Source: Thermodesulfobacteriota bacterium (GTDB lineage Bacteria > Desulfobacterota > Binatia > UBA9968). From it: a DNA stretch of 64,000 nucleotides. Location: positions 25,549-89,548 of the forward strand of contig DAIRFP010000001.1 in NCBI GenBank assembly GCA_036794995.1. The letters are read 5' to 3'. Positions 5,164 through 60,827 of this stretch are shown piece by piece. How positions within the stretch are numbered: position 1 is the stretch's first letter; every line of letters starts with the position of its first letter. The position numbers and the translations under genes were made by a program. The notes beneath the pieces were generated by a model. The model saw only the letters and a program-made list of their open reading frames with translations, was not told the DNA's origin and did no database searches.

Positions 5164-5377
5164 TACTGTGCCTCGACACGGCTGAGTCTGTATATCTCGC
5201 CGCCCATCTCTCCGTGAGTAGCCGGGTGACTTCGTAGGTACCCCGCTGCATGCCGACCACGGCCCCCAAATGCTTCGGAACACCCCGAGCGGCGCATGTC
5301 ATGACGTCCAGGGTATTGTCGTCTTGCTAGCGGATGCATATCGACCATGGGCGCATTCCTCTTTTTGCGCAGACGTT

Positions 5378-8009: not shown

Positions 8010-8020
8010 GGCTCAATTGA

Positions 8021-9202: not shown

Positions 9203-9243
9203 GTCAGCTCACTATTCCAGCGTTGACCCGTTGCGTTGTCAAG

Positions 9244-11178: not shown

Positions 11179-11664
11179 TCCAGCAGCCTCCCTTTGCAAA
11201 ATTGATTACACTCTTTGCAGACACGAGAGCTCCCAAAAAGAGAAACGCCGATCGCGCGGACAACAATAATAAGCTGTGACGGTTGAGAGAATGAAGGTGA
11301 GCCGGTGAAATCACTATTTTGATTGCGCGCATCACCTTGAGGTAAGGAAATGAAAATAAACTGAAGCCAGACTACGAGGCGCCGCAGATGATAGTTGGAA
11401 GTAATTCAAGGCTTGCGTTCGACCTCCTTTGCTTTTCGGTCGGCCGCCCGGCTTATTCCTATTTTAGACGCATCAAAGAACTTAATATTCAGTCTGCACC
11501 TTACTGCGCTTCTTACGCTATTATTGAAGCGCCATTTGTCGGGAAAGTCAAGGAAATTCATAGGGGCTGAGTACGTTTGCAGGTCGAAGCCGAGCGCGCC
11601 CATATTATCATGATCGCTTTTGTCTGATACTATTATTGAAATAAGGACAAGTGTGCTGAGACTC

Positions 11665-22174: not shown

Positions 22175-22180
22175 GTCTGT

Positions 22181-23503: not shown

Positions 23504-23529
23504 TGGAGAGTTTGCGAGTTAAGTGCAAA

Positions 23530-27134: not shown

Positions 27135-27211
27135 TGGTGGCGGTGGGCGGATTCGAACCGCCGACGCCGCGGATATGAGCCGCGTGCTCTGACCAACTGA
27201 GCTACACCGCC
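27135..27211 (-). tRNA. tRNA-Met (anticodon CAU), elongator-type, CCA encoded
   Basis: Minus strand reads GGCGGTGTAGCTCAGTTGGTCAGAGCACGCGGCTCATATCCGCGGCGTCGGCGGTTCGAATCCGCCCACCGCCACCA. Cloverleaf folds cleanly, anticodon loop is CUCAUAU, and 1-72 is a G-C pair, so it is not an initiator. A lysidine-modified Ile2 identity cannot be excluded. Confidence 0.9.
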
Positions 27212-33814: not shown

Positions 33815-33853
33815 TCGACCGGTGCCTGGTTTGAGAACGCCGTGGCGCACGGA

Positions 33854-34933
33854 ATGAAGAGAACTCCACTTTATGCCATGCATCGGCGCGCGGGCGCGAG
33901 GATGGTGGAGTTTGCTGGCTGGGAGATGCCGGTTCAATACCGTGGTGTCATCGACGAACACGTGGCGGTTCGTCAGCGCGCAGGGCTCTTCGACGTCAGC
34001 CATATGGGGGAAATCGAGATCCGCGGTCCGGCGGCGCTGGACCTCTGTCAAAGAGTTACGGCCAACGATGTCTCGCGGCTCAAACTGCAACAGGCCCAGT
34101 ACAATCTGTTGATGAACGAGAACGGCGGCATCGTCGATGACGTTATTTTCTACCGTCTTGAGTCAAATTATTTCTTGGTCTGCGTGAATGCCTCCAATTC
34201 CGACAAAGCTTTCACGTGGATTCAGAAACAAGCCCAAGGCGATGTCGAGTTGAACAACGTGAGCTCTCGCTATGCCCAATTGGCCCTTCAAGGTCCGTTG
34301 GCGGAAAAGATCTTGCAACCGCTGACGCCCGTGGACCTGGGCGAGATTCATGCATTTTTCTTCGCATCCGGCGAGGTGAGTTCGATTCGTTGCTTGATTG
34401 CGCGCACGGGCTATACGGGGGAAGACGGTTTCGAGCTCTACTGTGACCCGTCGGAAGCGGAGCGTTTGTGGACGGTGTTGCTTGAAAGCGGAGAGCCCGC
34501 GGGACTTGAGCCGGCGGGTCTCGGTGCCCGTGACACGCTCCGATTGGAAAAGGGCTATCCATTGTACGGCCACGAGCTGGATGATACGACGACGCCGCTG
34601 GAAGCCGGGTTGGAGTGGGTCGCGAAACTGGCTAAAGGGCCATTCATCGGGCGGGAAGCCCTGTTGAAACAGAAAGAGCAGGGGGTCCTGCGAAGGCTCG
34701 TCGGGTTGGAGCTTTTGGATCCGGGAATCGCGCGAAGCGGTTATGCCCTATTCAAGAACGGAAAATCCGTCGGTCGGGTGACGAGCGGCACGAAGTCTCC
34801 CACCCTCGGGAAATCGATTGCGCTCGCCTACGTGGCCAGCGAAGAGACTGGACTGAATAACTCGATCCAAGTAGAAATTCGTGGCCGAAAGATCGCAGCG
34901 CAGATAGTTCCTTTGCCGTTTTACCCGCGGTAA
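33854..34933 (+). CDS. gcvT: Glycine cleavage system aminomethyltransferase (T protein)
   Basis: MKRTPLYAMHRRAGARMVEFAGWEMPVQY is a classic GcvT N-terminus. An alternative GTG start exists at 33842. Confidence 0.95.
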   Translation: MKRTPLYAMHRRAGARMVEFAGWEMPVQYRGVIDEHVAVRQRAGLFDVSHMGEIEIRGPAALDLCQRVTANDVSRLKLQQAQYNLLMNENGGIVDDVIFYRLESNYFLVCVNASNSDKAFTWIQKQAQGDVELNNVSSRYAQLALQGPLAEKILQPLTPVDLGEIHAFFFASGEVSSIRCLIARTGYTGEDGFELYCDPSEAERLWTVLLESGEPAGLEPAGLGARDTLRLEKGYPLYGHELDDTTTPLEAGLEWVAKLAKGPFIGREALLKQKEQGVLRRLVGLELLDPGIARSGYALFKNGKSVGRVTSGTKSPTLGKSIALAYVASEETGLNNSIQVEIRGRKIAAQIVPLPFYPR

Positions 34934-34971
34934 CGAGAGAAGTAATAAGCCATAAAGTAAGGAGGTTAGCG

Positions 34972-35412
34972 ATGGAGTTTCCCGAAGGCCTGAAATATTC
35001 CAAAGAACATGAATGGGTGCTCGTCGAAGGCAATACCGCTACGATTGGGATTACTGAGTTCGCCCAGGAAGAGCTGGGCGACGTTGTGTACGTGGAACTG
35101 CCCGAAGTTGGAGAAAAGGTCGTGAAAGACGATCCTTTCGGCGCGGTGGAGTCTGTGAAGGCGGTCTCTGACGTCTACGCGCCGGTGGGTGGAACGGTTC
35201 TCGAAGTTAATGATGTGTTGCCGGATAATCCGGAGACTATCAACGATGATCCTTACGGTGATGGGTGGATGATCCGGGTTGAAATGACGGATGAGGACGA
35301 TCTTAAGGATTTGATGACCGCGGAGGAGTACGCTGAATATGTAGATCAACAAAAGGAAGACGAGGACGAAGAAGAGGAGGACGACGAAGCGGAAGAAGAA
35401 GAGGAGGAATAG
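34972..35412 (+). CDS. gcvH: Glycine cleavage system H protein with a poly-acidic C-terminal tail
   Basis: Lipoyl-lysine motif VESVKAVSDV. The core of about 125 aa is followed by QQKEDEDEEEEDDEAEEEEEE. Confidence 0.95.
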   Translation: MEFPEGLKYSKEHEWVLVEGNTATIGITEFAQEELGDVVYVELPEVGEKVVKDDPFGAVESVKAVSDVYAPVGGTVLEVNDVLPDNPETINDDPYGDGWMIRVEMTDEDDLKDLMTAEEYAEYVDQQKEDEDEEEEDDEAEEEEEE

Positions 35413-35421
35413 CTTCCAGGA

Positions 35422-36768
35422 ATGCGCTACACTCCCCACACTCCCCTCGACAAGGAGCAGATGCTCCGAGTCATTGGAATCGATTCCCTTGACGAACTAT
35501 ACCGTCACGTTCCGGAAACCCTCCGCAACCGCGCCAAGATCGGTCTTCCCGAAGGTTTGACCGAGTTGGCGGTTCGCCGGCGTCTGGCCGCGCTGGCCGC
35601 CAAAAACGCAACCCCTTCCGAGTGGAGTTTTTTTCTGGGTGGCGGGATCTATCACCATTTCATACCGAGCGCAGTAGATGCGGTTATCTCCCGTTCGGAG
35701 TTTGCCACTTCCTACACGCCTTACCAACCGGAAGTCAGCCAGGGCACGTTGCAAGCCTTGTTCGAGTACCAGACGTTGGTCTGTCAGCTCACTGGCATGG
35801 AAGTATCCAACGCAGGGGTCTATGACGGGGCTTCTGCGGCCGCAGAAGCGGTTCTTATGTCTCGGCGCATCCAGCCGCTGAATCGACGGCGAGTTTTGCT
35901 GTCCAGAGCCCTGCATCCGCACTATCGTGAGGTTATTTCGACCTATTTGAAGAATCTCAACGATATGCGACTGGAAGAAGTTGGCTTCGATAACAGTGGT
36001 GGAACCGATTTGGAACAGCTGACGGCAAAGCTTGACCATCAATCCATGTGTGTCGTCGTAGGCTATCCGAATTTTTTCGGTATCATCGAAGATCTCACCC
36101 CGATACAGGCTGCTTGCGCCAGCTCCGGTGCACAACTGATTACCGTGACAGCAGAACCGTTGGCGTTGGGCGTCCTCAAGCCCCCCGGGGAATGGGGTGC
36201 GGACATTGCTGTGGGCGAAGGACAGAGTTTGGGAGTTCCCATGACGCTGGGCGGCCCGGGATATGGTTTCTTCGCCTCTCAGAGGAGGTTCGTACGCAGC
36301 TTGCCGGGTCGTTTGGTCGGAGAAACCGTCGACGCCGAAGGTCAACGCGGTTTCGTGTTGACCCTCGCGACACGCGAACAGCATATTCGCCGCGAGAAGG
36401 CGACCTCCAATATTTGCACCAGTCAAACGCTGTGTACGCTGGCATCGACGGTTTTTATGTCTCTCCTAGGCAAGACCGGAATGCGCCGACTCGCAGAAGT
36501 GAACGTTTCGCGCGCTCACGAGGCCTGCGATCGGCTCGTCGACGAGGCCAAACTCGAGTTTTGCTTTTCACGCCCGTTTTTTAACGAGTTCGTTTTACGT
36601 GCCAAGAATTTGCCCGATCTTATGAAGCGCTGTGCCGCGGAGCGGATCGTGCCGGGGGTGCCCTTGGGTCAGTGGTATCCTGAGCTCCATGATTGTTTGT
36701 TAGTTTGCGTCACGGAAATGAACCAGAGAGAGGAGATCGATCGCCTTGTCGGAAGTATCGGTGGGTAG
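35422..36768 (+). CDS. gcvPA: Glycine dehydrogenase (decarboxylating) subunit 1
   Basis: 448 aa with the typical split P-protein N-terminal subunit (MRYTPHT...; SYTPYQPEVSQGTLQ). Confidence 0.95.
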   Translation: MRYTPHTPLDKEQMLRVIGIDSLDELYRHVPETLRNRAKIGLPEGLTELAVRRRLAALAAKNATPSEWSFFLGGGIYHHFIPSAVDAVISRSEFATSYTPYQPEVSQGTLQALFEYQTLVCQLTGMEVSNAGVYDGASAAAEAVLMSRRIQPLNRRRVLLSRALHPHYREVISTYLKNLNDMRLEEVGFDNSGGTDLEQLTAKLDHQSMCVVVGYPNFFGIIEDLTPIQAACASSGAQLITVTAEPLALGVLKPPGEWGADIAVGEGQSLGVPMTLGGPGYGFFASQRRFVRSLPGRLVGETVDAEGQRGFVLTLATREQHIRREKATSNICTSQTLCTLASTVFMSLLGKTGMRRLAEVNVSRAHEACDRLVDEAKLEFCFSRPFFNEFVLRAKNLPDLMKRCAAERIVPGVPLGQWYPELHDCLLVCVTEMNQREEIDRLVGSIGG

Positions 36769-38236
36769 GCGCTTGCAACCGGCTGCTCCCCGGCTGCTGT
36801 TTGAGAGCGGATCGTCGGGACGGAGTGCTTTCTATTGGCCAGATGGGGATGACCAAGGCCAAGGAAACATCCCGGAGACGCTATTGCGGCACGATATCCC
36901 TGGGTTTCCCGAATTGGGGGAGTTGGAAGTGTTGCGCCACTTCACGCGCCTCTCGCAGCGAAATTTCGCTATCGAAAGCCAGTTCTATCCCTTGGGTTCT
37001 TGTACGATGAAATATAATCCCAAGGTCAATGAAGTAGCGGCGCGACTTCCTGGATTTGCGCAAATTCATCCGTTGGCTCCCGTCGAGGTGCTGCAAGGGG
37101 CCATGGAGTTGCTCTACGATCTGGAGCGAATGCTCTTGGAAATCTGCGGGATGGACTCCGTGAGCTTGCAGCCATCGGCGGGCGCCCAGGGCGAGCTAAC
37201 CGGGTTGATGCTGATTCGCGCCTGTCTAGCTGAAAGAGGAAATCCTCGCAAGAAAATCATCGTCCCGGACACGGCGCACGGAACCAACCCTGCGAGCTCA
37301 ACGTTGTGCGGCTATGATGTCGTGCAAATTTCCTCCACCGCCCAAGGCGTGATCGACCCGGCGACGATCGCAAAAGTGATGGATGAGCAGGTCGCCGCGT
37401 TGATGATTACGAATCCCAACACACTGGGGCTGTTCGAAAAGGACATTGAGGCGATTGCTGAGGTCGTCCATGGAAAGGGTGGCTTGGTGTATCTCGATGG
37501 CGCGAATCTCAACGCGCTTATGGGCGTTGCGAAGCCCGGTCACATGGGTGTCGACGTGCTTCATATGAACCTCCACAAGACATTCTCCACACCCCATGGC
37601 GGCGGCGGTCCAGGTGCCGGGCCGGTTGCGGTTAAGAAGATGCTGTCCGACTATCTGCCTGTGCCACGGATCGCTAAGAACGCCGGCACCTTTTACTTGC
37701 AGGAGCGTTGTCCTAAAACGATCGGCCGCGTGCGCTCGTTTTTTGGCAATTTTGGAATCTTGGTCCGAGCCTACACCTACATTATCTCGATAGGAGGGAA
37801 TGGTCTCGAGGAGTCAAGCCGCATGGCGCTCCTCAACGCCAACTATATTCGCAAGCGGTTGGAAAAGAGTTATCAGCTTGCTTACAATGAGCCCTGCATG
37901 CACGAGTGCATTTTTACGGACCGGCTGCAGCATAAGCACGGTATTAGTACACTTGATATTGCAAAGCGGCTTTTGGATTACGATTTCCATCCACCAACGA
38001 TCTATTTCCCCTTGGTCGTTTCAGGCGCGCTGATGATTGAACCTACGGAAACCGAGACCCCCGAAACTTTGGACGCGTTTGTTGAGGCCATGCTTGCCAT
38101 CGCGCGGGAAGCCGAAGAGACTCCCGAAGTCGTCAAAGCCGCCCCTCACTCAACGCCGGTAAGGCGCCTTGATGAAGCCAGAGCGGCGCGAAGGCAGATT
38201 TTGAGATGGGAGCCGACGCATGGGAAAGCCGAATGA
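36746..38236 (+). CDS. gcvPB: Glycine dehydrogenase (decarboxylating) subunit 2
   Basis: 496 aa containing the PLP-lysine region NLHKTFSTPHGGGGPG. Start is TTG 36746 or GTG 36761, overlapping the gcvPA stop. Confidence 0.95.
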   Translation: MSEVSVGRRLQPAAPRLLFESGSSGRSAFYWPDGDDQGQGNIPETLLRHDIPGFPELGELEVLRHFTRLSQRNFAIESQFYPLGSCTMKYNPKVNEVAARLPGFAQIHPLAPVEVLQGAMELLYDLERMLLEICGMDSVSLQPSAGAQGELTGLMLIRACLAERGNPRKKIIVPDTAHGTNPASSTLCGYDVVQISSTAQGVIDPATIAKVMDEQVAALMITNPNTLGLFEKDIEAIAEVVHGKGGLVYLDGANLNALMGVAKPGHMGVDVLHMNLHKTFSTPHGGGGPGAGPVAVKKMLSDYLPVPRIAKNAGTFYLQERCPKTIGRVRSFFGNFGILVRAYTYIISIGGNGLEESSRMALLNANYIRKRLEKSYQLAYNEPCMHECIFTDRLQHKHGISTLDIAKRLLDYDFHPPTIYFPLVVSGALMIEPTETETPETLDAFVEAMLAIAREAEETPEVVKAAPHSTPVRRLDEARAARRQILRWEPTHGKAE

Positions 38237-42251: not shown

Positions 42252-43253
42252 CTATATTGAGAATTTGAGATTTCCGACCGCCATCCGGTCACGCCAACCA
42301 ACCCAAAGATTCGTGCTCAGATATTTGTCGCCGAAATCAGGAAATACCGTGACTAACGTGCCGGTGCGGAGTTTGCGCGCGACTTTCAAGGTGGCAAACA
42401 TGGCTGCTCCGGATGACTGACCCACTAGAACTCCTTCTTCCTGACTCAAGCGATAAACCATTGCATAGGCGTCTTCAGTGGCAACAGGGATCTTTTCGTC
42501 CAACTCTTCTTCGTGGTATATCCCAGGCACGATGGAACTAGCCATGTGCTTGAGACCTTCCAGGCCATGAAGCGAGTCGTCAGGTTCCACGGCGAGAATC
42601 TTGATATTTGGATTTACCTCCTTGAAATATCGGCCCGTGCCCATAACCGTTCCGCCTGTGCCAATCCCCGCAATGAAGTGCGTAATCTGTTGCTGCGTTT
42701 GCCGATAGATTTCCGGACCTGTGGTTTCATAATGAGCCTGGGGATTCATCGGATTGAAATATTGATCTGGCTTGAAATAACGCTCAGGGTTTTCTTCGAG
42801 AATTTTTCTACATAGGCGAATGGCGCCATCCGAGCCTTCTAATGGGTCGCTAAAAACGATCTTTGCCCCGTAGGCAGTTATGATCTGTTTGCGTTCCCTG
42901 CTCACGTTTTCCGGAACGACTAACTCCACCGAATAACCGAGGACGCAACCGATCATGGCAAGGGCGATTCCGGTGTTTCCCGAGCTGGAATCCAAGATCG
43001 TTTTATCCGGTCGTAGCTTTCCTGAGCGAATTCCTTCCTGCACCATTCTCAGTGCGGCGCGATCCTTAACCGATCCGCCCGGATTAAAACCTTCCAATTT
43101 TGCATAGACCCGCACGCTTGCAGGGAGGCCTTCGGTGAGCTTGCGAATTTCGAGTAAGGGGGTATCGCCGATCAAATCCAGCACTGACTCGACTTTCCTG
43201 GGCTCCTTTGACGGGACCGGAACGAGGCGAAGAAGTGGAGTCGTTTGTGCCAT
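42252..43253 (-). CDS. cysM: CysM/CysK-family PLP-dependent sulfhydrylase (CysO-thiocarboxylate-dependent cysteine synthase-like)
   Basis: 333 aa with PLP-lysine motif GGSVKDR and SSGNTG. The start ATG overlaps the stop of the upstream CysO-like gene by 1 nt (TGATG). Confidence 0.85.
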   Translation of the reverse strand: MAQTTPLLRLVPVPSKEPRKVESVLDLIGDTPLLEIRKLTEGLPASVRVYAKLEGFNPGGSVKDRAALRMVQEGIRSGKLRPDKTILDSSSGNTGIALAMIGCVLGYSVELVVPENVSRERKQIITAYGAKIVFSDPLEGSDGAIRLCRKILEENPERYFKPDQYFNPMNPQAHYETTGPEIYRQTQQQITHFIAGIGTGGTVMGTGRYFKEVNPNIKILAVEPDDSLHGLEGLKHMASSIVPGIYHEEELDEKIPVATEDAYAMVYRLSQEEGVLVGQSSGAAMFATLKVARKLRTGTLVTVFPDFGDKYLSTNLWVGWRDRMAVGNLKFSI

Positions 43254-43558
43254 CAGCGCCTCTGCCTCTGTGCGGGCGTTTGCAGTCCCCCGGCGATCGC
43301 CGGGACAATCGCGATGTTATCACCCTCTTTTAACGCTGTTTCCAGGTTTTGTAGAAAACGGATATCGTCACCGTTGACGTAAACGTTTACAAAGCGGCGG
43401 ATCTTGCCGGTTTCATCGCAGATTCGTTCTTTAATACCAGGGAAATTCTTCTCCAGGTCTTCGACCATCGTCTTAACATTGATGCCTTGCGCGCTGACCT
43501 CGTCGGCACCTTGAGTGAACTTTCTAAGCGGAGTGGGTACGCGAACTCGTACTGGCAT
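43253..43558 (-). CDS. cysO: MoaD/ThiS-family sulfur-carrier protein, CysO-like, with a 10-aa extension after the Gly-Gly
   Basis: 101 aa with ...RRFVNVYVNGDDIRF...GDNIAIVPAIAGG followed by LQTPAQRQRR and the stop. Pattern strongly resembles mycobacterial CysO (from memory). AAGGAGG SD upstream. Confidence 0.8.
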   Translation of the reverse strand: MPVRVRVPTPLRKFTQGADEVSAQGINVKTMVEDLEKNFPGIKERICDETGKIRRFVNVYVNGDDIRFLQNLETALKEGDNIAIVPAIAGGLQTPAQRQRR

Positions 43559-43760
43559 AGGGAGCCTCCTTCGAATCTATCGAGAAATCACTTGATGAAT
43601 TGCGCATCCATGTCGTTCTAATAAGATAAACTCTCGTCTTGTTCCTTGCAAACCTCCACCCTCCAAGACGCGATCCGTCTAACTAGCCGCCGCGCGTGCT
43701 GTCGCTGTTGGACTAAGCTGCTGGCAAAGTTTATCGAAGTTTTCGAGAGTCGCACGGATG

Positions 43761-44013
43761 CTAAAAGGGCTTTTCGAGGGGTGTAAAGCCGGAATACAGA
43801 CCAACCTGTGGTTCCCCATCGATGGCAAGCAGTTCTCCATAGCACCATAGGTTTTTGCCGCGGGAGGTGATTTTTTCCCGACTGATGTATGACTTGTTGC
43901 TATCGTAGTCACAGATTATTTCCGAGGGTCCAAGCAGGTTTCACATACGTGAGTGGCTGCTTCGGAGCGTCCTGCCCGCACTCTCTGCATTGAAGTCCTA
44001 GGACAAAACTCAT
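43761..44013 (-). pseudogene. Threonine-synthase-like (ThrC/MetM-like) N-terminal remnant, frameshifted and truncated
   Basis: ATG at 44013 has a GAAAGGAG SD. Three frames in succession read MSFVLGLQCRECGQDAPKQPLTYV / VCETC / LGPSEIICDYDSNKSYISREKITSRGKNLWCYGELLAIDGEPQVGLYSGFTPLEKPF*. This is the zinc-ribbon plus LWRY..LLP...GxTPL pattern of long-type ThrC N-termini. Only about 480 nt separate the flanking genes. Confidence 0.65.
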
Positions 44014-44041
44014 TGGGGTACTCCTTTCACTGATTTCGATC

Positions 44042-44833
44042 CTAGGTGCTGGTGGCAGGCGATTTTGTCGCGGATTCGACACCGCAGGCCAGGCAATGGG
44101 CGTCTCTGCTGACATTCACGACGTAAAACTTCATCCATCTCGCGTCGAACGTGAGCAATCGATCCGTCAGCAACCCTTCTTCGAAGCCGGCGAGATACTT
44201 AATTGCTTCGATTGCCTGGATCGAACCCACGGTCCCTGCGACGGCGCCGAGTATACCGGCTTGCTGGCAACTCAAGATTTCTTCGAGCGGAGGTGGTTGC
44301 CCGAAGAAACATCGATAGCAGGCGCTTTTTCCAGGTACGACTGTCATGGTCTGCCCTTGCAGCCGAACGATTCCAGCATGCGAAAAGGCAATGCCCAGAG
44401 CCACAGCAATGTCGTTGACTAGAAATTTTGTCGCGAAGTTGTCGCTGCCGTCAACAATGAAATCGTAACCTGAAAGGATTGCGGCTGCGTTGTCCGGTTC
44501 GACCCGAGCGGCATAGGTTACGACTTCCACGTCGGGGTTCAGGAGGCTAATTTTTTCTTTGGCGGAGTCCACCTTGCGCCGGTCCCGGTCAGACGTCGTG
44601 TGCAAGATTTGTCTCTGCAAATTGGATAACTCCACGTGATCGGGATCGACCAAGCCGAGGGTGCCGACACCAGCGGCGGCTAGATAGAGCGCTGCCGGAG
44701 AGCCGAGTCCACCGGCTCCGACGACCAAAACGCGAGCTTGCCGAAGCCGGACCTGTGCTTTCCCACCCAGATCGGGAATCATGATCTGCCTGCTGTATCG
44801 CTCAATTTGGTCTGTGGTAAGGCGAATGCTCAT
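44042..44833 (-). CDS. ThiF/MoeB/HesA-family E1-like adenylyltransferase (no rhodanese domain)
   Basis: 263 aa with RYSRQI, the nucleotide motif VVGAGGLGSPAALYLAAAGVG, and two CxxC pairs (CYRC, CLAC). Confidence 0.9.
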   Translation of the reverse strand: MSIRLTTDQIERYSRQIMIPDLGGKAQVRLRQARVLVVGAGGLGSPAALYLAAAGVGTLGLVDPDHVELSNLQRQILHTTSDRDRRKVDSAKEKISLLNPDVEVVTYAARVEPDNAAAILSGYDFIVDGSDNFATKFLVNDIAVALGIAFSHAGIVRLQGQTMTVVPGKSACYRCFFGQPPPLEEILSCQQAGILGAVAGTVGSIQAIEAIKYLAGFEEGLLTDRLLTFDARWMKFYVVNVSRDAHCLACGVESATKSPATST

Positions 44834-44847
44834 TTTGCTATTCCGGC

Positions 44848-44884
44848 AAAAAAAGCCTCTTCCCCTAGGATAAGAAGAGGCTTT
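44848..44884 (-). terminator. Intrinsic terminator (expression platform of the S-box-like leader)
   Basis: Minus strand reads AAAGCCUCUUC-UUAUCCUAGGG-GAAGAGGCUUU followed by more U (U7 run in total). It ends 14 nt before the thiF/moeB ATG. Confidence 0.75.
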
Positions 44885-44890
44885 ACCTCA

Positions 44891-44991
44891 CCTTATCTTT
44901 TGCCCCGGTAAGAGGCGGGTTGGAATTAGCACCAGCGTTTCGTCTTCCGGAACCGGTTGCTGTGACTTCGCTGGGGCCGCTCTGGATAAGG
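44891..44991 (-). promoter_or_regulatory. SAM-I clan (S-box)-like riboswitch aptamer
   Basis: Minus strand reads CCUUAUCCAGAGCGGCCCCAGCGAAGUCACAGCAACCGG...CGCUGGUGCUAAUUCCAACCCGCCUCUUACCGGGGCAAAAGAUAAGG. Hallmarks are CUUAUC/GAUAAG (P1), AGAG, GCAACC/GGUGC (P3) and AAUUCC. The P2 region is atypically short. Confidence 0.6.
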
Positions 44992-45014
44992 TGTCCAGAT
45001 GTTGCTAGACGCTT

Positions 45015-45043
45015 AAGCTATCGTAGCAGCCAAGGTGTGTCAA
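45015..45043 (-). promoter_or_regulatory. Candidate sigma70-type promoter for the S-box-like leader
   Basis: Minus strand TTGACA (45038-45043), 17 nt, TAGCTT (45015-45020). About 25 nt upstream of the P1 5' strand. Confidence 0.4.
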
Positions 45044-45170
45044 GCCCTTCAAATGCTTCTCTTTGGAACAAAAAAATGTTTAATTTCAAAGGGTTTAGGC
45101 TGGTGACGACTCGAAACTGCGGCGGGCAAAATTGACCCTGCTGAGCAATTCTGTTACACCGGAACTTGGA

Positions 45171-45578
45171 ATGAAGGTACGTGAAGTCTATTCGAGTTAT
45201 TTACTCATTGCCGGGGTTGTCTGCTTTTTGCTGGGCATCGGTAACTGGGCAATCGGTGCGGTGGAAACCTCGAAATACCAGAAGCTGCTGCATAGAACTG
45301 AACAAACCGGGCTGGAAGAATCCTACAGAAGCTTCCAGGAGCTTGATCACCAAAAAAACGAAGAGGTCCTTCGGCGAATTAACGAGGATCGCGAGAAATA
45401 CAACACTGCCCGGGTGAAGCTAAATTTCTTTTCTGTGGTGTTGGTAGGTGGAAGGTCGTTGTTTCTTTGCGGGGTTCTATTGATGTTATGCTCCCTGATT
45501 CGACTTATACGTCGTGATACGCAGAAGAAAATGACTACTCTGAGTGACCTAGCTAGGGGCGACAATAGGGGGCGTTGA
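45171..45578 (+). CDS. Hypothetical membrane protein (two TM helices flanking a charged coiled segment)
   Basis: 135 aa from the ATG at 45171. TM helices LLIAGVVCFLLGIGNWAIGAV and FFSVVLVGGRSLFLCGVLLMLCSLI. No family recognised. Confidence 0.4.
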   Translation: MKVREVYSSYLLIAGVVCFLLGIGNWAIGAVETSKYQKLLHRTEQTGLEESYRSFQELDHQKNEEVLRRINEDREKYNTARVKLNFFSVVLVGGRSLFLCGVLLMLCSLIRLIRRDTQKKMTTLSDLARGDNRGR

Positions 45579-45601
45579 CTAGTGCTCCGGAGCAGACACG
45601 C

Positions 45602-46624
45602 CTACTTGGAAGGTTTCGACTTCTGATACTTTCGGTAATCGTATCCTGTGGCCATAGCCAGTAGGATATCTTCCATACCCCCATTCTTTTCCCGCCTGAG
45701 GACCAAGAGCCTGTCGTAGAATTCCTTGAAGTCTTTATAGATCCGTTGACTATCGTCGGTCTTTCTCAGATAAAAGTCCTTAATTCGAGTGACGGTGAAT
45801 CGCAGAGCGGAAAAACGAAGCTCGTTGGGAAACGAATCCCATTCCGGAAGAGAGAGAGGGCGAAGGCTTTCATAGCCGGAGATCAGCGCTTCGAAACGGT
45901 CAATGCGGTATCGTTGGTCAACGAAACAGAGCGCATTAACCGCTGTCGCCAAGTCGTATATTAGCTTGCCGCGACAGGCCGCTTCAAAATCCATGACCCC
46001 GGCCAGGCGACTGCCCTTGAACTTGACATTATCGGGGAAAAAGTCTCCATGAATAATTCCCTTGGGGAGATTGTTGTCGAGGTAGTTCTCCAGGTATGAG
46101 AACTCATCGTCCAGAACTCGAACAATGTTTCTTAGGTGGGTTGGAAGTTGTCGACGTACTTCACGGTAAATGGCGACGATTCTGCTGAAGCCAAATCGGT
46201 TATCGATACCTTTTTTGTAACTTCTTCCGATTAGATGCAGGTTGGCTAAGGTGTGACCTAAAATTCCCAGATGGGTGGCAGTGAGAGACTCAATTGGGAG
46301 ATCAACGCCGTCCAGATAGCGGCTGACGGTCAGGCATTTACCCCGGAAGTCAATGTAGTATCTCCCCGTCTTGGTTTTGAGGGGTTGTAGGCAAGGGAAC
46401 CCTTGCTTCCTCACGTGAAACAGCAGATCCAACTCTTGCTTTACTTCAAGTTCACTTTTGACTTCATCGATCTTGGCAAAAAACCTCCCCCGTTTAGTTT
46501 CTAGTAGATAGTGGGTATTCACTGAGCCATTCTTGACGCCGGAAGAGGACACCAAGTCCCCCAAGGTGAACTCTTCGGCGATCCTCGTCGCATCCTTCCT
46601 TGTAACTTCAGTGTAAATAGCCAT
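45602..46624 (-). CDS. thrB: Homoserine kinase type II (ThrB_alt; APH/choline-kinase fold)
   Basis: 340 aa. The N-terminus (MAIYTEVTRKDATRIAEEFTLGDLVSSSGVKNGSVNTHYLLET) and the catalytic IHGDFFPDNV motif match the pattern of protein-kinase-fold homoserine kinases. Confidence 0.7.
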   Translation of the reverse strand: MAIYTEVTRKDATRIAEEFTLGDLVSSSGVKNGSVNTHYLLETKRGRFFAKIDEVKSELEVKQELDLLFHVRKQGFPCLQPLKTKTGRYYIDFRGKCLTVSRYLDGVDLPIESLTATHLGILGHTLANLHLIGRSYKKGIDNRFGFSRIVAIYREVRRQLPTHLRNIVRVLDDEFSYLENYLDNNLPKGIIHGDFFPDNVKFKGSRLAGVMDFEAACRGKLIYDLATAVNALCFVDQRYRIDRFEALISGYESLRPLSLPEWDSFPNELRFSALRFTVTRIKDFYLRKTDDSQRIYKDFKEFYDRLLVLRREKNGGMEDILLAMATGYDYRKYQKSKPSK

Positions 46625-46701
46625 CGGTTGTTTCCTGATCAACCCTTACAGGCATACGAAAACCCAAGTATTACGCACCCCTGCAAAGGCTAACTAAGCC
46701 A

Positions 46702-46730
46702 TTTATAATGAAAAAAACACGCGAAGTCAA
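46702..46730 (-). promoter_or_regulatory. Candidate sigma70-type promoter for the homoserine-kinase gene
   Basis: Minus strand TTGACT (46725-46730), 17 nt, TATAAA (46702-46707). About 75 nt upstream of the ATG. Confidence 0.5.
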
Positions 46731-46789
46731 TATAAAATCGGTTTCTCGCTTGTAAATCACGACGGTTTAAAAATTCACTATTGGATTCA

Positions 46790-52719: not shown

Positions 52720-52806
52720 TGGTGCGAAAGAGGGGAGTCGAACCCCTACGGGTATTACCCCACAGGATCCTGAATCCTGCGCGTCTACCAATTCCGCCAC
52801 TTTCGC
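52720..52806 (-). tRNA. tRNA-Leu (anticodon CAG), CCA encoded
   Basis: Minus strand reads GCGAAAGTGGCGGAATTGGTAGACGCGCAGGATTCAGGATCCTGTGGGGTAATACCCGTAGGGGTTCGACTCCCCTCTTTCGCACCA. Long variable arm; anticodon loop UUCAGGA. Confidence 0.9.
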
Positions 52807-52890: not shown

Positions 52891-53427
52891 ATGAGCAAGA
52901 TTCTAGTTTTTGCACCTCAAAGAATGATACAGCAGGCGATTGTGTTGTCACTTTTTTCTGATCACGACGTTCAGTTGTGTGTCGGTTTAGGGGAAAACAG
53001 CTCACCCGCCGTAAACGATTTTGATTTAGCGATCGTCGATGCGACTGCCTTGCGGAACGTGAAAGCACCCGCAACCCAACTGCTGAAGAGGATTCAGGAT
53101 GGGAAGATTCCGACGGTCTGGATCGAGGAGGCCGGAGGGGACCAGGAGCCGTGTGGCGACAACTTGGCGGTACTCAAGCGACCGATTCAGAAAGATGCGT
53201 TGCAATCCGCGGTTGCAGCGTGCCTGACTTCCTTGGATGCAAAACCGCACGCGAAGCGGCGCGCTGTGAAGAAGGAAAAAAGTAGATCACCGAGAACTAC
53301 GGCAAAGCAAGCGAGCATCGATGTGGCGCCTCACGTGACGGGCTTTCAGGTTATTGAGCTGGTTGACGTCGTGGAAGAGGCCCCGGAGCGTAACCAGAAT
53401 AATAAGCAACAGGGAAAGACGAAATAA
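52891..53427 (+). CDS. Receiver-like (pseudo-REC) domain protein with a basic/low-complexity tail
   Basis: 178 aa. KILVFAP...DLAIVDA...PTVWIEE...VLKRPI follows REC beta1/beta3/beta4/beta5 spacing, but the beta1 acidic pair is missing. Ends 4 nt before valS. Confidence 0.45.
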   Translation: MSKILVFAPQRMIQQAIVLSLFSDHDVQLCVGLGENSSPAVNDFDLAIVDATALRNVKAPATQLLKRIQDGKIPTVWIEEAGGDQEPCGDNLAVLKRPIQKDALQSAVAACLTSLDAKPHAKRRAVKKEKSRSPRTTAKQASIDVAPHVTGFQVIELVDVVEEAPERNQNNKQQGKTK

Positions 53428-53431
53428 TGAC

Positions 53432-56200
53432 ATGGAACTAGCGAAGGCCTACTCGCACAAGGACGTTGAAGCTAAATGGTACGCCTATTGGGAGCGATCG
53501 GGGGCGTTTAAGCCGGCGGCAGGGAGTGGTCTGTATTTTTCCATGGTCATTCCGCCTCCCAATGTGACCGGATCTCTGCATATGGGTCATGCGCTGAACA
53601 ATACGCTACAGGATATTCTCTGCCGCTACCAAAGGATGGACGGGAAACGCGTTCTTTGGGTGCCGGGCACGGATCACGCCGGCATCGCCACGCAGAACGT
53701 CGTCGAGCGGCGTTTGGCGGCGCAAGGTCTGAGCCGCACCCAGGTGGGGCGAGAAGAATTCGTCAAAAGGGTTTGGCAGTGGAAGCAGGAAGCGGGCAAC
53801 GCCATCTTGCATCAGCTGAGAGCCCTCGGTATTTCCTGCGATTGGGAGCATGAACGCTTCACCATGGATCAAGGGCTTTCCCTAGCCGTGCGTGAAGCCT
53901 TTGTGCGCCTTTGGGAAGATCGCCTTCTCTATCGCGCCCAGAGACTCATCAATTGGTGTCCCCGCTGCAAGACAGCGCTTGCCGACATCGAGGTGATTCA
54001 TGAAGAATCCGACGGCAACCTTTGGTTCATTCGATATCCATTTGCGGATGACCCGTCGCAATCATTGATCGTCGCCACGACACGGCCTGAAACCATGCTT
54101 GGCGATACCGCATTGGCGGTGCATCCTGACGATCAGCGCTATCGGGGCTTCGCCGGCAAGAAGATTCGGCTGCCCATAACTGGCCGCGTGGTGCCGCTGC
54201 TCAATGATTCCTATGTTGATCAGAACTTCGGGACCGGTGTTTTAAAAGTCACTCCGGGTCACGACTTCAATGATTTTGAGATCGGCGAGCGCTTTGGTCT
54301 GGATCGGATCAGCATCTTCAATGCCGATGCGAGGATCGATGGCTCGGCGTTTTCCTCCCGGGGCGAGACGGGAGACTGGATCGATCGGTACAATTTGAAA
54401 GATCGGTTCGAGGCAAGGAAGCTGTTGGCGGCCGAGCTGAAAGAAAAGGGTTTTTTGAAAAAGGTCGAACCCTACCGTCTTGCGATTGGCCGTTGTTACC
54501 GTTGCCAGACCGTGGTCGAGCCGTATCTTACGCCGCAATGGTTCGTCAATATCAAGCCATTGGCGGAGCCGGCGCTGCGGGCGGTGCGGGAAGGTGGGAT
54601 TCGAATTATTCCCGAAGGGTGGACCAACTCCTATTTTGCATGGATGGAAAATATCAAAGATTGGTGCGTTTCGCGGCAGATTTGGTGGGGGCACCAGATA
54701 CCGGCCTGGTATTGTGTCGCCTGTGATGCGGGGAATCTGATTCGCAACCATGAAGGTGAGTATATTTTTACCAAAGACGCCCATCCGATCGTGGCTCGGC
54801 AAACACCGAAGAGTTGTCCCCAATGCGGTGGTCACGAGTTGGTCCAGGATTCCGACGTATTGGATACCTGGTTTTCTTCGGCCCTCTGGCCGTTTTCAAC
54901 TCTCGGCTGGCCGGATACGACGGACGATCTCAAGAGTTTCTACCCGACGTCCGCGCTGGTCACAGGCTTCGATATCTTGTTTTTCTGGGTAGCCAGAATG
55001 ATCATGATGGGGCTAAAGTTCATGGAGGATGTGCCGTTTCGGGACGTTTACATTCACGCACTGGTTCGCGATGAGCAAGGGCAAAAAATGTCGAAATCGA
55101 AGGGCAACGTTATCGACCCACTCGACATCATGAGCCAATACGGGACAGATGCGTTCCGTTTTACGCTAGCCGCCATGGCCGCTATGGGTCGGGATATCAA
55201 GCTCGCCGAGGATCGCATCGCCGGCTATCAAAATTTTGTGAATAAGCTCTGGAATGCGGCGCGTTTCGTTCTTATCAACCGTGGCGAGCATGCAAGTAGT
55301 CAGGAGGATCATGAACGCATTCTTGCTAGAAGCGACCTGAATTTGGCGGACCGTTGGATTCGCTCCCGTCTTGCATCGACCATCGCTGAAGCCAGAAAAG
55401 CGATCGACGCTTACCGATTCAATGACTACGCCAACGTTCTATACCAATTCATCTGGCATGAGTTCTGTGATTGGTACATCGAGATGAGCAAGCTGTCCCT
55501 GAACCGCACGATGGGCGCGGATCCCAAGCAAAGTCAGCGGTTGCTGGTGGAGATCCTGGAACAGATTCTGTTGTTGCTGCATCCGATCATGCCGTTTATT
55601 ACCGAGGAGATCTGGCAAGTGTTGGCAGGACCCGAGTCAAAAAAACCACGTGGCAGCTTAATGCTGGAGTCCTATCCTGGTATCCAACCAGGTTGGATCG
55701 AAGCGGAAACCGAGAAAGCGATGGAATTTCTGATGAACGCGGTTCGTGCTACTAGAAATCTGCGCACCGAAATGAACTGTCCGCCGGGTAAGGAAGTCAA
55801 AGTCGTTTTCCACGGTCCGGCGCAGGAGCTATCTTTTCTACGGGCGCAGGAGCCCTATCTTCGGTTGCTGGCGCGCATCGGATCCGTTGAGTATCTGACT
55901 TCCGGCGAGCGACCCAAAGGTGCTGCCATGGCGATTGTCGGCGGCACGGAAGTGCTTCTCCCGCTGGGGGATATGATCAACCTGAAGGAAGAGCAAACGC
56001 GATTGACCAAAGAGGTGGACAAGATGGAAGAGGAGCTTTCACGGGTTCAAAAAAAGCTTTCTAACCCTGATTTTTTGGGCAAAGCGAAAGCAGAAGTTAT
56101 TGAGAAAGAGCGGGAGAAGTCAGCTCAATACATGGAGAAACTGCGCACCCTCAACCTGAGTCTGGAACGGCTCGGGGAAATCGAACAAGGAAGGAACTAA
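53432..56200 (+). CDS. valS: Valine--tRNA ligase
   Basis: 922 aa from the ATG at 53432 with a HIGH-type motif (PNVTGSLHMGHAL), KMSKS and a C-terminal coiled coil. Confidence 0.97.
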   Translation: MELAKAYSHKDVEAKWYAYWERSGAFKPAAGSGLYFSMVIPPPNVTGSLHMGHALNNTLQDILCRYQRMDGKRVLWVPGTDHAGIATQNVVERRLAAQGLSRTQVGREEFVKRVWQWKQEAGNAILHQLRALGISCDWEHERFTMDQGLSLAVREAFVRLWEDRLLYRAQRLINWCPRCKTALADIEVIHEESDGNLWFIRYPFADDPSQSLIVATTRPETMLGDTALAVHPDDQRYRGFAGKKIRLPITGRVVPLLNDSYVDQNFGTGVLKVTPGHDFNDFEIGERFGLDRISIFNADARIDGSAFSSRGETGDWIDRYNLKDRFEARKLLAAELKEKGFLKKVEPYRLAIGRCYRCQTVVEPYLTPQWFVNIKPLAEPALRAVREGGIRIIPEGWTNSYFAWMENIKDWCVSRQIWWGHQIPAWYCVACDAGNLIRNHEGEYIFTKDAHPIVARQTPKSCPQCGGHELVQDSDVLDTWFSSALWPFSTLGWPDTTDDLKSFYPTSALVTGFDILFFWVARMIMMGLKFMEDVPFRDVYIHALVRDEQGQKMSKSKGNVIDPLDIMSQYGTDAFRFTLAAMAAMGRDIKLAEDRIAGYQNFVNKLWNAARFVLINRGEHASSQEDHERILARSDLNLADRWIRSRLASTIAEARKAIDAYRFNDYANVLYQFIWHEFCDWYIEMSKLSLNRTMGADPKQSQRLLVEILEQILLLLHPIMPFITEEIWQVLAGPESKKPRGSLMLESYPGIQPGWIEAETEKAMEFLMNAVRATRNLRTEMNCPPGKEVKVVFHGPAQELSFLRAQEPYLRLLARIGSVEYLTSGERPKGAAMAIVGGTEVLLPLGDMINLKEEQTRLTKEVDKMEEELSRVQKKLSNPDFLGKAKAEVIEKEREKSAQYMEKLRTLNLSLERLGEIEQGRN

Positions 56201-58721: not shown

Positions 58722-60827
58722 ATGGCTACAGTGGAGTTGGATAAACTGCGTAACATCGGCATTCTGGGTCAAGGCGGCTCTGGCAAGACTTCCTTAGCAG
58801 AGGCGATGCTGTTTGCGGCGGGGGTGACGCAGCGGCTGGGGAGGGTCCAGGACGGGACGTCGGTGTTCGATCATGAACCGGAAGAGATTAAACATCATGT
58901 TTCGATCGTGACCGCCTTTCACTCCTTAACGTGGAAGAAACACTCTTTTTATGTCGCGGACACACCTGGCTACGCGGCGTTCTTGGCGGATTCGATAAAT
59001 TGCCTGCGCGGGTTTGGCGGCGCGGTGTTGGTGTTGAATCCATCCGTCGGCCTCAGAGTCGAATCGGAACGTTTGTGGGCCAAAGCCAATGAATATCGCA
59101 TCGCCAGGTTGCTATTCATCAACAAGATGGACCATGAACAAGCCAATGTCGAAGAGCGTATCGACTCAATCTTGGAGGGGCTGGAAGCCAAAGGCCTTTA
59201 TCTCCAGATCCCCATTGGCGTTGAGGCGGAGTTCAAAGGCGTGGTGGATCTGCTTTCCATGAAAGCCTATTGCTATGAGGGAGATACCGGAAAATTTGCA
59301 GAATCGGCAATGCCCGCCGACTTGAAAACCGCAGCTGATGAAATGCGCCAGAAGCTAGTGGAAGCCGTATCAGAAATCGACGACGAGCTCTTGGAAAAAT
59401 ATCTGGACGGCAAAGAACTCTCGACGGAAGAGCTGAAGGGAGCCATTCGTAACGGGACGAGGGAGGGAAAGCTCTATCCAATTTTGTACGGTTCGTCGAC
59501 TCGTCAGATCGGCATTCCTCAATTCCTCGATGCCGTCATGGATTACCTGCCTGCGCCGATGGAGGAAGGTGAAATGGAAGGCAAGAATCCGATAACAGGT
59601 GAGTCCGAGAAGCGGCGGCAGGACCCCGGAGCCCCCTTTTCCGCCTATGTGTTTAAAACCATCGTTGATCCTTTTGCCGGGAAACTATCTGTGATGCGGG
59701 TCATTTCCGGCAAGCTTGCTGCGGATGGAGTGGCCTACGATCCCAACAAGCAGGTTAAAGAAAGAATCGGCCATCTGTTTCGTTTGGAAGGGAAAAAACA
59801 AGAGGCGGTTAGAGAAGCTTGCGCCGGGGAAATCGTGGCGACCGCTAAATTAAAAGACGTCACCACTGGGGATACGCTGTGCGACGAAAAAGCGCCGATC
59901 CAATATCCCGGGGTGGAGCATTTTTCTCCGGTGATTTCCTTTGCACTGGAGCCGAAGAGCAAAACCGACGAGGAAAAATTGCCCCAGGGGCTACAGAGGA
60001 TAAGGGAAGAAGATCCGACGATTGATCTCCATCGCGACGAGGAAACTCGTGATTTTATCCTTTCGGGCATGGGACAGCAGCATATCGAGATTATCGTTGA
60101 AAAGCTCAAGCGCAAGTATGGCGCCGAGGTCGTGCTGAAAGCACCAAAGGTGCCTTACAAAGAAACCATCAGGGGCAGCGCCAGCGCCCAAGGGAAGCTA
60201 AAGAAGCAGTCTGGGGGCAGAGGACAGTATGGAGACACCTGGCTAAAGATCGAACCGCTCCCCCATGGTAAGGGATTCGAGTTCGTCGATGGGATCGTCG
60301 GCGGCGCCATCCCACGCAACTACATCCCAGCGGTGGAAAAAGGGATCCGGGAGACGATGGCCGGAGGGGTGATCGCCGGCTATCCCATGGTGGACGTTCG
60401 GGTTACCCTTTACGACGGCTCCTATCATGACGTGGATTCTTCGGATATGGCGTTCAAGATCGCCGGCTCCATGGGTTTCAAAAACGCAGTGGAAAAGGCA
60501 AAACCGGTGCTGCTCGAGCCGATTATGAACATGGCAGTCACCGTACCCGACGAATGTATGGGCGACGTCATTGGCGACCTCAATAGCCGGCGGGGCAAGG
60601 TGGTTGGGATGGATACCAAAGGACACAGCCAGGTGATTAAATCCAAGGTGCCGATGTCCGAAGTTTTGAAATATGCGCCCGACCTGCGCTCGATCACCAG
60701 TGGACGCGGGGAGTTCCACCTGGAATTTTCGCATTACGAGGAACTGCCGCCTCACTTGTCGGAGAAGGTGATCAAGGAAGTGAAAGCGCGGCTGGCGGCG
60801 GAGCAGCACGGTGAACACAAGGCTTGA
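58722..60827 (+). CDS. Elongation factor G paralogue with divergent GTPase motifs
   Basis: 701 aa with five-domain EF-G architecture (INKMD G4; QSGGRGQYG domain IV). G1 is GQGGSGKT rather than AHIDAGKT, and G3 is DTPGY rather than DTPGH. AAAGGAGGA SD. Confidence 0.85.
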   Translation: MATVELDKLRNIGILGQGGSGKTSLAEAMLFAAGVTQRLGRVQDGTSVFDHEPEEIKHHVSIVTAFHSLTWKKHSFYVADTPGYAAFLADSINCLRGFGGAVLVLNPSVGLRVESERLWAKANEYRIARLLFINKMDHEQANVEERIDSILEGLEAKGLYLQIPIGVEAEFKGVVDLLSMKAYCYEGDTGKFAESAMPADLKTAADEMRQKLVEAVSEIDDELLEKYLDGKELSTEELKGAIRNGTREGKLYPILYGSSTRQIGIPQFLDAVMDYLPAPMEEGEMEGKNPITGESEKRRQDPGAPFSAYVFKTIVDPFAGKLSVMRVISGKLAADGVAYDPNKQVKERIGHLFRLEGKKQEAVREACAGEIVATAKLKDVTTGDTLCDEKAPIQYPGVEHFSPVISFALEPKSKTDEEKLPQGLQRIREEDPTIDLHRDEETRDFILSGMGQQHIEIIVEKLKRKYGAEVVLKAPKVPYKETIRGSASAQGKLKKQSGGRGQYGDTWLKIEPLPHGKGFEFVDGIVGGAIPRNYIPAVEKGIRETMAGGVIAGYPMVDVRVTLYDGSYHDVDSSDMAFKIAGSMGFKNAVEKAKPVLLEPIMNMAVTVPDECMGDVIGDLNSRRGKVVGMDTKGHSQVIKSKVPMSEVLKYAPDLRSITSGRGEFHLEFSHYEELPPHLSEKVIKEVKARLAAEQHGEHKA

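Follow-up and report, generated by a model that had tools for sequence, protein, structure and literature searches.

The closest described relatives of the system studied here are pathways in which a ThiS/MoaD-type carrier protein works with a sulfur amino-acid enzyme. Mycobacterium tuberculosis makes cysteine by the CysO/CysM/Mec+/MoeZR pathway, and Krishnamoorthy and Begley reportedly described in 2011 a protein-thiocarboxylate methionine pathway (HcyS/HcyF/HcyD/MetY) in Wolinella succinogenes. In the Streptomyces albulus system (Hasebe et al. 2024), MetM, MetO, Mec and MoeZ are reported to make homocysteine from O-phosphohomoserine, with a riboswitch for S-adenosylmethionine (SAM) 5' of metM. 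The gene neighbourhood of a carrier and a cysteine synthase is class 4c/4d of Iyer, Burroughs and Aravind 2006 (PMC1779556). Here we describe a locus built from such parts in a 64,000-nt stretch of a Thermodesulfobacteriota bacterium of the Binatia (assembly GCA_036794995.1, contig DAIRFP010000001.1, positions 25,549 to 89,548), which we call the window. The locus has an S-box-like (SAM-I) leader, a gene for a ThiF/MoeB-type activating enzyme (E1), remnants of a gene related to threonine synthase (ThrC), a carrier gene, and a gene for a CysM/CysK-family enzyme that uses pyridoxal phosphate (PLP) and that we call CysM.

Judged by comparison with related genomes, we take the window locus to be the partly decayed version of a standard operon of Binatia-like soil bacteria, and not a new pathway. 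We think it reasonably probable that this was a SAM-controlled operon and that its trio of E1, carrier and CysM survives as a thiocarboxylate-dependent cysteine module that does not respond to SAM.

Comparison with described systems

As in M. tuberculosis, a ThiS/MoaD-type carrier gene stands directly 5' of the gene for a CysM-type enzyme, and an E1 is needed for the thiocarboxylate. Unlike there, no JAMM protease gene is in the operon and no rhodanese is fused to the E1, whereas the mycobacterial operon has no S-box control; in addition, the window CysM scores 240–245 bits with CysK structures and 214 bits with M. tuberculosis CysM. The Wolinella pathway is said to share a carrier extended after the Gly-Gly, a dedicated E1 and a role in sulfur amino-acid synthesis, but to have a MetY-type O-acetylhomoserine sulfhydrylase and the JAMM protease HcyD in its cluster, neither of which is at the window locus. 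The cassette, with a putatively MetM-like enzyme, resembles the system reported for S. albulus, which pairs a ThrC-family PLP enzyme with a ThiS/MoaD-type carrier, needs an E1 (MoeZ), has the SAM riboswitch 5' of metM, and has carrier residues after the Gly-Gly that a protease has to remove. The differences are that the ThrC-like gene of the window is a pseudogene, that the carrier gene of intact relatives also precedes a CysM gene, and that here the E1 gene is in the operon, lacks a rhodanese domain and has no Mec/JAMM gene nearby.

A first-pass annotation, made from the window letters alone, did not recognise this combination as a described operon type. Its parts are known from MetM/MetO with a SAM riboswitch and from neighbourhoods of ThiS, E1 and cysteine synthase, and its intact form is common in Binatia-like metagenome-assembled genomes (MAGs). 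We did not find described a single operon that unites these parts, with one carrier between the PLP enzymes, an E1 lacking rhodanese and no JAMM gene in cis.

The intact cassette in related genomes

We scanned one genome per species with the window CysM protein, which gave 80 related loci (L001–L080) at 68–87% identity, nearly all of them from MAGs labelled Candidatus Binatia or "Deltaproteobacteria bacterium". Gene order was read by tblastn with the window proteins and the ThrC-like protein of L002. The carrier gene is directly upstream of CysM in all 80, and wherever the sequence reaches far enough E1 comes first, followed by a 420-aa ThrC-family gene, the carrier and CysM. For 63 relatives and the window, 64 loci in total, the sequence spans both the region 5' of E1 and the interval between E1 and carrier. 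The cassette of E1, ThrC-like gene, carrier and CysM is intact in 50 of these 64, and 45 of the 50 also have a full S-box. We thus found, exactly between E1 and carrier, the intact gene that the first-pass annotation had supposed to be ancestral here, and its idea that the ancestral cassette served methionine synthesis fits the S-box counts and a MetM/MetO-type role. The shared arrangement shows the ancestral cassette, which consists of S-box, E1, 420-aa ThrC-like gene, ThiS/MoaD-type carrier and CysM. The closest relatives of the window are L001 and L002, which group with it in 100 of 100 bootstrap trees and are the sole two loci that share its neighbouring kinase and 148-aa genes.

A few features of individual relatives were recorded alongside. 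In L002 (5492–7582) the E1 and ThrC-like genes form one 696-aa open reading frame (ORF) with no intervening stop; this may be a natural E1-ThrC fusion or else an error of a long-read MAG. Seven relatives (L007, L016, L024, L036, L056, L063, L067) have a 2.8–5 kb insertion between the ThrC-like gene and the carrier; the one in L007 (4913–7525) splits the operon and encodes, on the other strand, a secreted protein of 870 aa that is unrelated to it. We considered these insertions as a source of a JAMM gene and dismissed them, as they hold none (the L007 insert was the one examined). In L076 (9243–12510), and similarly in the more distant Binataceae-type loci L069–L080, CysM is followed by a 237-aa E1-like ORF without the nucleotide-binding glycine motif, and then by a HAD-like ORF and ORFs resembling adenosine phosphosulfate (APS) kinase and ATP sulfurylase; the last two tie the cassette to sulfate assimilation. 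L070 (CAMBFS010000033.1) is labelled a Klebsiella pneumoniae MAG, yet the contig carries a Binatia-type cassette, is nearly identical to L069 ("Deltaproteobacteria bacterium") and probably comes from a mislabelled or contaminated bin.

Decay of the ThrC-like gene

In the window, the interval between E1 and carrier (43559–44041) is about 480 bp without a long reading frame. Alignment of this DNA to L001 and L002 shows that 924 nt (308 codons) are missing between nt 241 and nt 1166 of the 1263-nt intact gene, with a TCG microhomology at the junction. No reading frame for a MetM-type enzyme is left, because only nt 1–241 and 1166–1263 are kept, with frameshifts. The N-terminal remnant has 1-bp deletions at about 43952 and 43923, and the C-terminal remnant has further small indels; the conserved C-terminal peptide ATLENFDKLCQQL can still be read in its frame translations. 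Mismatches between the remnants and L001 fall at 11, 10 and 34 of about 80 sites each for the first, second and third codon positions. Since third positions are favoured, much of this divergence must have built up while the gene was still coding. Promoter-like matches inside the remnant are no commoner than in shuffled sequence.

The intact protein of the relatives has the PLP-lysine motif P[TS]xSYKDR. An N-terminal CxxC..CxxC ribbon is present in 54 of the 55 intact proteins (e.g. L002:6320–7579), and all 55 have N[LI]RP[YF]YxEGAKT where the threonine synthase of Aquifex (2zsj) has NPYRIEGQKT. This motif and the ribbon could be signatures that set carrier-dependent enzymes apart from true threonine synthases. 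By analogy with described systems, the enzyme would be a MetM-type, carrier-dependent homocysteine synthase.

The leader and its lesion

In an S-box leader, the P1 helix without its ligand loses to the antiterminator and transcription reads through. The window leader matches the SAM-I family RF00162 with 41.7 bits (E = 6.8e-8), under the gathering score of 44.4, and an Rfam scan of the window at the gathering threshold gives no S-box match; the leaders of ten relatives score 82.7–94 bits. The alignment spans model positions 1–108, with P1, P3 and P4 paired and the four-way junction present, and like a SAM-I riboswitch the leader has a terminator/antiterminator platform and lies 5' of sulfur amino-acid genes. 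The antiterminator (44886–44897 paired with 44869–44880) and the intrinsic terminator (stem 44874–44883 with 44853–44862, and seven T at 44848–44854 that overlap the base of the stem) are conserved in the 47 leaders that we aligned.

Among these 47, the window alone lacks 12 nt (GGAGGGA-xxGG). Read against the structure line of L018 (an intact leader, 5320–5495), the deletion takes away the 5' strands of both the kink-turn (K-turn) and P2b, and with them the P2 loop, which forms a pseudoknot with J3/4. There is an additional C-to-T change in the 3' strand of P2a. Altogether the window deviates at 10 of the 78 leader columns with 95% conservation or more, a higher count than in any other sequence; the other 68, which include P1, P3, P4, antiterminator and terminator, are intact. 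Conversion of the K-turn to a simple bulge abolished detectable SAM binding (PMC3651934), and mutations of the pseudoknot lowered termination in vitro and in vivo (PMC3064774). Because the K-turn and the pseudoknot are lost, and given this mutagenesis, the window leader would no longer sense SAM and is probably not a ligand sensor any more. The term "SAM-gated", which the first-pass annotation used for the cassette, therefore probably does not apply to the window copy.

Repeated losses of ThrC-like gene and S-box

The same two losses recur among the relatives (Table 1). Loss of the ThrC-like gene is associated with loss of the S-box (Fisher p = 1.6e-6, with the window counted as damaged and no correction for phylogeny). 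In the ten ThrC-less loci that lack a leader, Rfam gives no match at the gathering threshold.

Table 1. State of the S-box leader at the 64 evaluable loci, by state of the ThrC-like gene.
ThrC-like gene	Loci	Full S-box	No S-box	Terminator only	P2 deleted
Intact	50	45	5	0	0
Absent or remnant	14	3	8	2	1 (window)

With E1, carrier and CysM concatenated (57 taxa, 709 columns), a neighbour-joining tree splits the ThrC-less loci into 10 groups; among the bootstrap trees, 68 show 10 groups, 29 show 11 and 3 show 12. Read from this tree, the ThrC-like gene was lost at least 10 times independently. The surviving remnants differ by lineage, which also supports independent events: L030 and L048 keep an N-terminal piece, L012 and L033 a C-terminal one, and the window both.

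The S-box has been lost in three ways. It was removed cleanly, with the promoter left beside E1 (L040, L057 and the L032 clade); its aptamer was deleted and the terminator left (L014 and L054, degenerate in L012 and L026); or, as in the window, it has an internal deletion of P2. In two clades the S-box is also gone from members with an intact ThrC-like gene (L026, L049), so the order of events is not fixed. At L014 (620–700) and L054 (4040–4115), where aptamer and ThrC-like gene are both gone, a terminator hairpin with a U-run stands directly 3' of the promoter and 5' of E1.

Population evidence

The exact CysM protein of the window occurs on five contigs (L081–L085) from independent metagenome assemblies of different samples, 99.7–99.9% identical to the window. 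All five share the layout of E1, gap, carrier and CysM, the 101-aa carrier and the leader deletion. ENA ERZ27267613 and ERZ27267686 and JGI 3300027513 and 3300011445 are samples in which this population occurs. An assembly or sequencing artefact is thus ruled out, as the 924-bp deletion, the S-box lesion and the 101-aa carrier are common to five independent assemblies. The five features listed by the first-pass annotation (leader, E1, ThrC-like pseudogene, carrier, CysM) are all present where it placed them, and these assemblies reproduce them.

The two most divergent contigs have 10–11 differences to the window, 7 of them within the ThrC-like remnant of about 480 bp. Indels at 43952 and 43766 are among the differences, so that two of the window frameshifts are still polymorphic; the one at 43952 is absent from the variants L083 and L084. 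The two differences in CysM are synonymous, E1 has one difference, and one variant has a Pro/Arg polymorphism in the carrier tail. This is the pattern expected of a neutral pseudogene flanked by genes under selection.

E1, carrier and CysM

The ThiF domain (PF00899) covers residues 13–247 of E1, and GAGGLG, CYRC and CLAC are visible in the translation. In NCBIfam it comes closest to MoeB and SAMP-activating E1, without reaching any of the cut-offs. No rhodanese domain was found in E1: the protein ends at residue 263, has PF00899 as its sole domain and covers positions 14–260 of the 392-position MoeZ profile. For the carrier the best NCBIfam matches are SAMP1 and archaeal MoaD (TIGR01687 moaD_arch, 57.1 against a cut-off of 49.5). 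CysM passes TIGR01136 cysKM (352.1, cut-off 344.15) and has the motifs SVKDR and SSGNTG, but it stays below the cut-offs of the equivalogs (TIGR01138 cysM 362 vs 394; cysK 301 vs 351). Its matches in the Protein Data Bank (PDB) are cysteine synthases, with CysK structures at 240–245 bits and M. tuberculosis CysM (3dki/3dwg) at 214 bits.

The carrier ends in ...AIAGG followed by LQTPAQRQRR, with the Gly-Gly at residues 90–91 and the 10-residue tail encoded at 43256–43285. This tail is the longest among 81 loci; 69 of the 80 relatives end at the Gly-Gly or one residue beyond it, and where there is a single extra residue it is variable. Compared to L001, the tail arose by an indel and the loss of the stop codon, with read-through of the former spacer including the cysM ribosome-binding site, until a TGA that overlaps the cysM ATG (ATGA). 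The extension of the carrier and its translational coupling to cysM are thus a single lineage-specific accident; what had been described as an extended CysO coupled to CysM is a by-product of a lost stop codon.

The ratio of nonsynonymous to synonymous rates (dN/dS) between the window and L001 or L002, a pairwise average over a long branch, is 0.10–0.11 for E1, 0.02–0.07 for the carrier and 0.06–0.07 for CysM, close to the values for L001 and L002 compared with each other. Pairs within ThrC-less clades give 0.05–0.13 (L040/L057 and L003/L012, each with dS near 1.3; L033/L074; L033/L048). No invariant catalytic column is lost, and of the near-invariant columns the window deviates at a single one in each of E1 and CysM. 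E1, carrier and CysM are still under strong purifying selection (dN/dS 0.02–0.14) in the window and in other ThrC-less lineages. This answers in part the question of the first-pass annotation, whether the module is re-purposed or decaying.

Convergent replacements across the ten ThrC-less lineages, looked for as a sign of a functional shift, gave nothing significant; in each protein a single column stood out (permutation P = 0.36 for E1 Pro183 and P = 0.27 for CysM Phe160-to-Tyr). Carrier Ser83 (in DNISIVPAIAGG, window 43310–43312) is invariant in all 56 ThrC-intact loci and is replaced by Ala in three independent ThrC-less lineages (window, L055 and L057; permutation P ~0.06), which is only a hint that this residue is constrained by the ThrC-like partner.

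Locus coordinates and neighbouring genes

Table 2 lists the features. The promoter-like arrangement TTGACA-N17-TAGSTT also occurs 5' of the leader or of E1 in relatives. A simple consensus promoter scan did not flag the site in the window, because its -10 hexamer is weak.

Table 2. Features of the cassette and its surroundings in the window (context marks genes outside the cassette).
Feature	Positions	Strand	Basis and remarks
Promoter-like site of the operon	45015..45043	-	TTGACA 45043-45038, 17-nt spacer, TAGCTT 45020-45015; read from sequence
Damaged S-box (SAM-I) aptamer	44890..44992	-	RF00162 match; P1, P3, P4 present; 12-nt deletion, junction 44976/44975
Expression platform	44848..44897	-	Antiterminator and intrinsic terminator (44848-44883); read from sequence
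ThiF/MoeB-type E1 adenylyltransferase, 263 aa	44042..44833	-	PF00899 ThiF, 263 bits
ThrC-like pseudogene, N-terminal remnant	43775..44013	-	nt 1-241 of intact gene (alignment to L001/L002)
ThrC-like pseudogene, C-terminal remnant	43679..43777	-	nt 1166-1263 of intact gene (alignment to L001/L002)
ThiS/MoaD-type sulfur carrier (CysO/MetO-like), 101 aa	43253..43558	-	PF02597 ThiS, 63.5 bits
CysM/CysK-family PLP enzyme, 333 aa	42252..43253	-	TIGR01136 cysKM above cut-off
Predicted membrane protein, 148 aa (context)	45132..45578	+	Conserved in L001, L002; no Pfam or NCBIfam match
APH-fold kinase resembling thrB_alt, 340 aa from ATG at 46624 (context)	45602..46624	-	PF01636 APH

The first-pass annotation placed a type-II homoserine kinase immediately upstream of the cassette. 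The kinase does have the APH fold, but it misses both NCBIfam cut-offs for homoserine kinases (TIGR00938 thrB_alt, 200.4 bits vs 255.9; NF003558, 203.1 vs 271). It is also not immediately upstream, as the 148-aa gene separates it from the leader and is transcribed divergently from the S-box promoter. The 148-aa protein has 78–82% identity in L001 and L002, with dN/dS of 0.05–0.13. With this opposite-strand gene in between, the kinase is a separate transcription unit, and the promoter scan gives it a promoter-like site of its own at 46729–46756. We rejected the kinase as a member of the operon, since a conserved gene on the other strand intervenes and the linkage to the cassette is confined to the window, L001 and L002.

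The remainder of the window is chromosomal housekeeping (pyruvate dehydrogenase 20753–26256, glycine cleavage 33842–38236, valyl-tRNA synthetase 53354–56200, elongation factor G 58722–60827), with tRNAs at 27138–27211 and 52723–52806. We also noted a PrkA/DUF444/SpoVR gene trio at 6576–11199 on the minus strand, in a lineage that does not sporulate.

Proposed history and alternative explanations

The intact operon consists of a sigma-70-type promoter, a SAM-I attenuation riboswitch, E1, a ThrC-family PLP enzyme with an N-terminal zinc ribbon, the carrier and a CysM-type enzyme. E1 would adenylate the C-terminal glycine of the carrier, which would then be converted to a thiocarboxylate, and the carrier would hand its sulfur to both PLP enzymes. 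The ThrC-like enzyme would turn O-phosphohomoserine into homocysteine as MetM/MetO do, CysM would make cysteine as in CysO/CysM, and SAM would shut the operon off by stabilising P1 and so letting the terminator form. Whether the intact Binatia cassette is in this way dual-output, so that MetM-type and CysM-type enzymes share one E1 and one carrier and are governed by the same SAM riboswitch, we regard as evenly balanced. In the window genome, the 924-bp deletion destroyed the ThrC-like gene, and the small indels followed. The surviving trio would still be a carrier-dependent module for cysteine synthesis, in which CysM takes its sulfur from the carrier once a protease encoded elsewhere has exposed the Gly-Gly end. 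Transcription would be unresponsive to SAM: with no ligand-stabilised P1 the antiterminator would win, giving constitutive read-through.

Several observations weigh against parts of this account. The ThrC-like protein of the relatives passes NF006050 "threonine synthase" by a little (306 bits, cut-off 303), and a homologue search with the intact protein gave at least 8000 matches, all close relatives, which either bear the name threonine synthase or have none. In its minimum-energy fold, the window leader is predicted to form the terminator hairpin, so constitutive termination is possible, and L014 and L054 keep a bare terminator; such a fold is normal for leaders of this kind, where the decision is kinetic, and does not decide between ON and OFF. 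The 10-residue tail may block adenylation unless a protease trims it. A search for the JAMM motif HxH...SxxD, which covered the window and the 80 related loci down to ORFs of 80 aa and which can miss divergent members, produced chance-like matches only, and there is no JAMM, rhodanese, met, cys or thr gene among the window ORFs of at least 180 aa. Any tail-trimming protease must therefore be encoded elsewhere, and likewise for relatives with one-residue tails. Pairwise dN/dS is also blind to very recent relaxed selection, and three lesions in one operon could mark the onset of complete decay.

The last two points bear on the possibility that the whole operon is dying, with E1, carrier and CysM left roleless by the loss of the ThrC-like gene and next to decay. 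Three independent lesions in a single 2.8-kb operon would fit this, as would a tail, longer than at any other of the 81 loci, that masks the Gly-Gly that E1 must adenylate; L054 even repeats the triple pattern, with the ThrC-like gene gone, the aptamer deleted and a 9-residue tail. It is the main rival, but we hold it to be unlikely, because E1, the carrier core and CysM keep full-length frames at dN/dS of 0.02–0.11, the population differences cluster in the remnant while the CysM protein is identical in five contigs, and purifying selection on the trio has persisted in ThrC-less clades across a dS of about 1.3. A survival of the trio for another purpose is a separate matter. E1 and carrier could serve molybdopterin synthesis, tRNA thiolation or SAMP-like conjugation, next to a CysM that is an ordinary sulfide-using cysteine synthase. 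The family matches of both proteins (SAMP1 or archaeal MoaD, and MoeB or SAMP-activating E1) point that way, CysM is closer to CysK structures than to M. tuberculosis CysM, and no JAMM protease or rhodanese gene is found in cis. But the carrier gene is directly 5' of CysM in 80 of 80 loci, and in 50 of 64 it follows E1 and stands between the two PLP enzymes; control by a SAM riboswitch suits sulfur amino-acid synthesis and not cofactor or tRNA pathways, and some relatives continue into genes for APS kinase and ATP sulfurylase. We therefore judge such a role quite unlikely.

If the leader were still a working SAM riboswitch, the operon would remain repressed by SAM. The local match is significant (E = 6.8e-8), P1, P3, P4, the junction, antiterminator and terminator are kept along with 68 of 78 near-invariant columns, and some point variants of the K-turn still bind SAM within the whole riboswitch (PMC3651934). 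The lesion here, though, is not a point change but a deletion that takes the pseudoknot loop and the P2b 5' strand together with all of the K-turn 5' strand. The leader has half the score of its relatives and falls below the Rfam threshold, and disruption of the pseudoknot lowers termination (PMC3064774). A leader that still works has, in our view, little chance of being the correct description. We see even less probability in a rewired remainder, in which CysM, with the long-tailed carrier and the nearby APH-type kinase, makes homocysteine, or both cysteine and homocysteine, from phospho-esters and the P2-less leader acts as a SAM-independent attenuator. Were it true, it would give a CysM-family, thiocarboxylate-dependent homocysteine synthase, which is not described so far.

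Significance

On our favoured reading of a decayed operon with a surviving cysteine module, the locus adds no new pathway and consists of known parts. The combined cassette is widespread in uncultured Binatia-like soil bacteria, whose MAGs are abundant; a MetM-like gene would be carried there under the automatic name "threonine synthase", which affects reconstruction of methionine and threonine metabolism in these organisms. The repeated co-loss of gene and riboswitch provides a comparative series on how a riboswitch is dismantled once its regulatory logic lapses. Within it, the window leader is a natural SAM-I variant without the K-turn 5' strand, P2b and the pseudoknot loop that can be compared with intact relatives, and the window as a whole would be a natural example of a riboswitch decaying along with the gene that it served.

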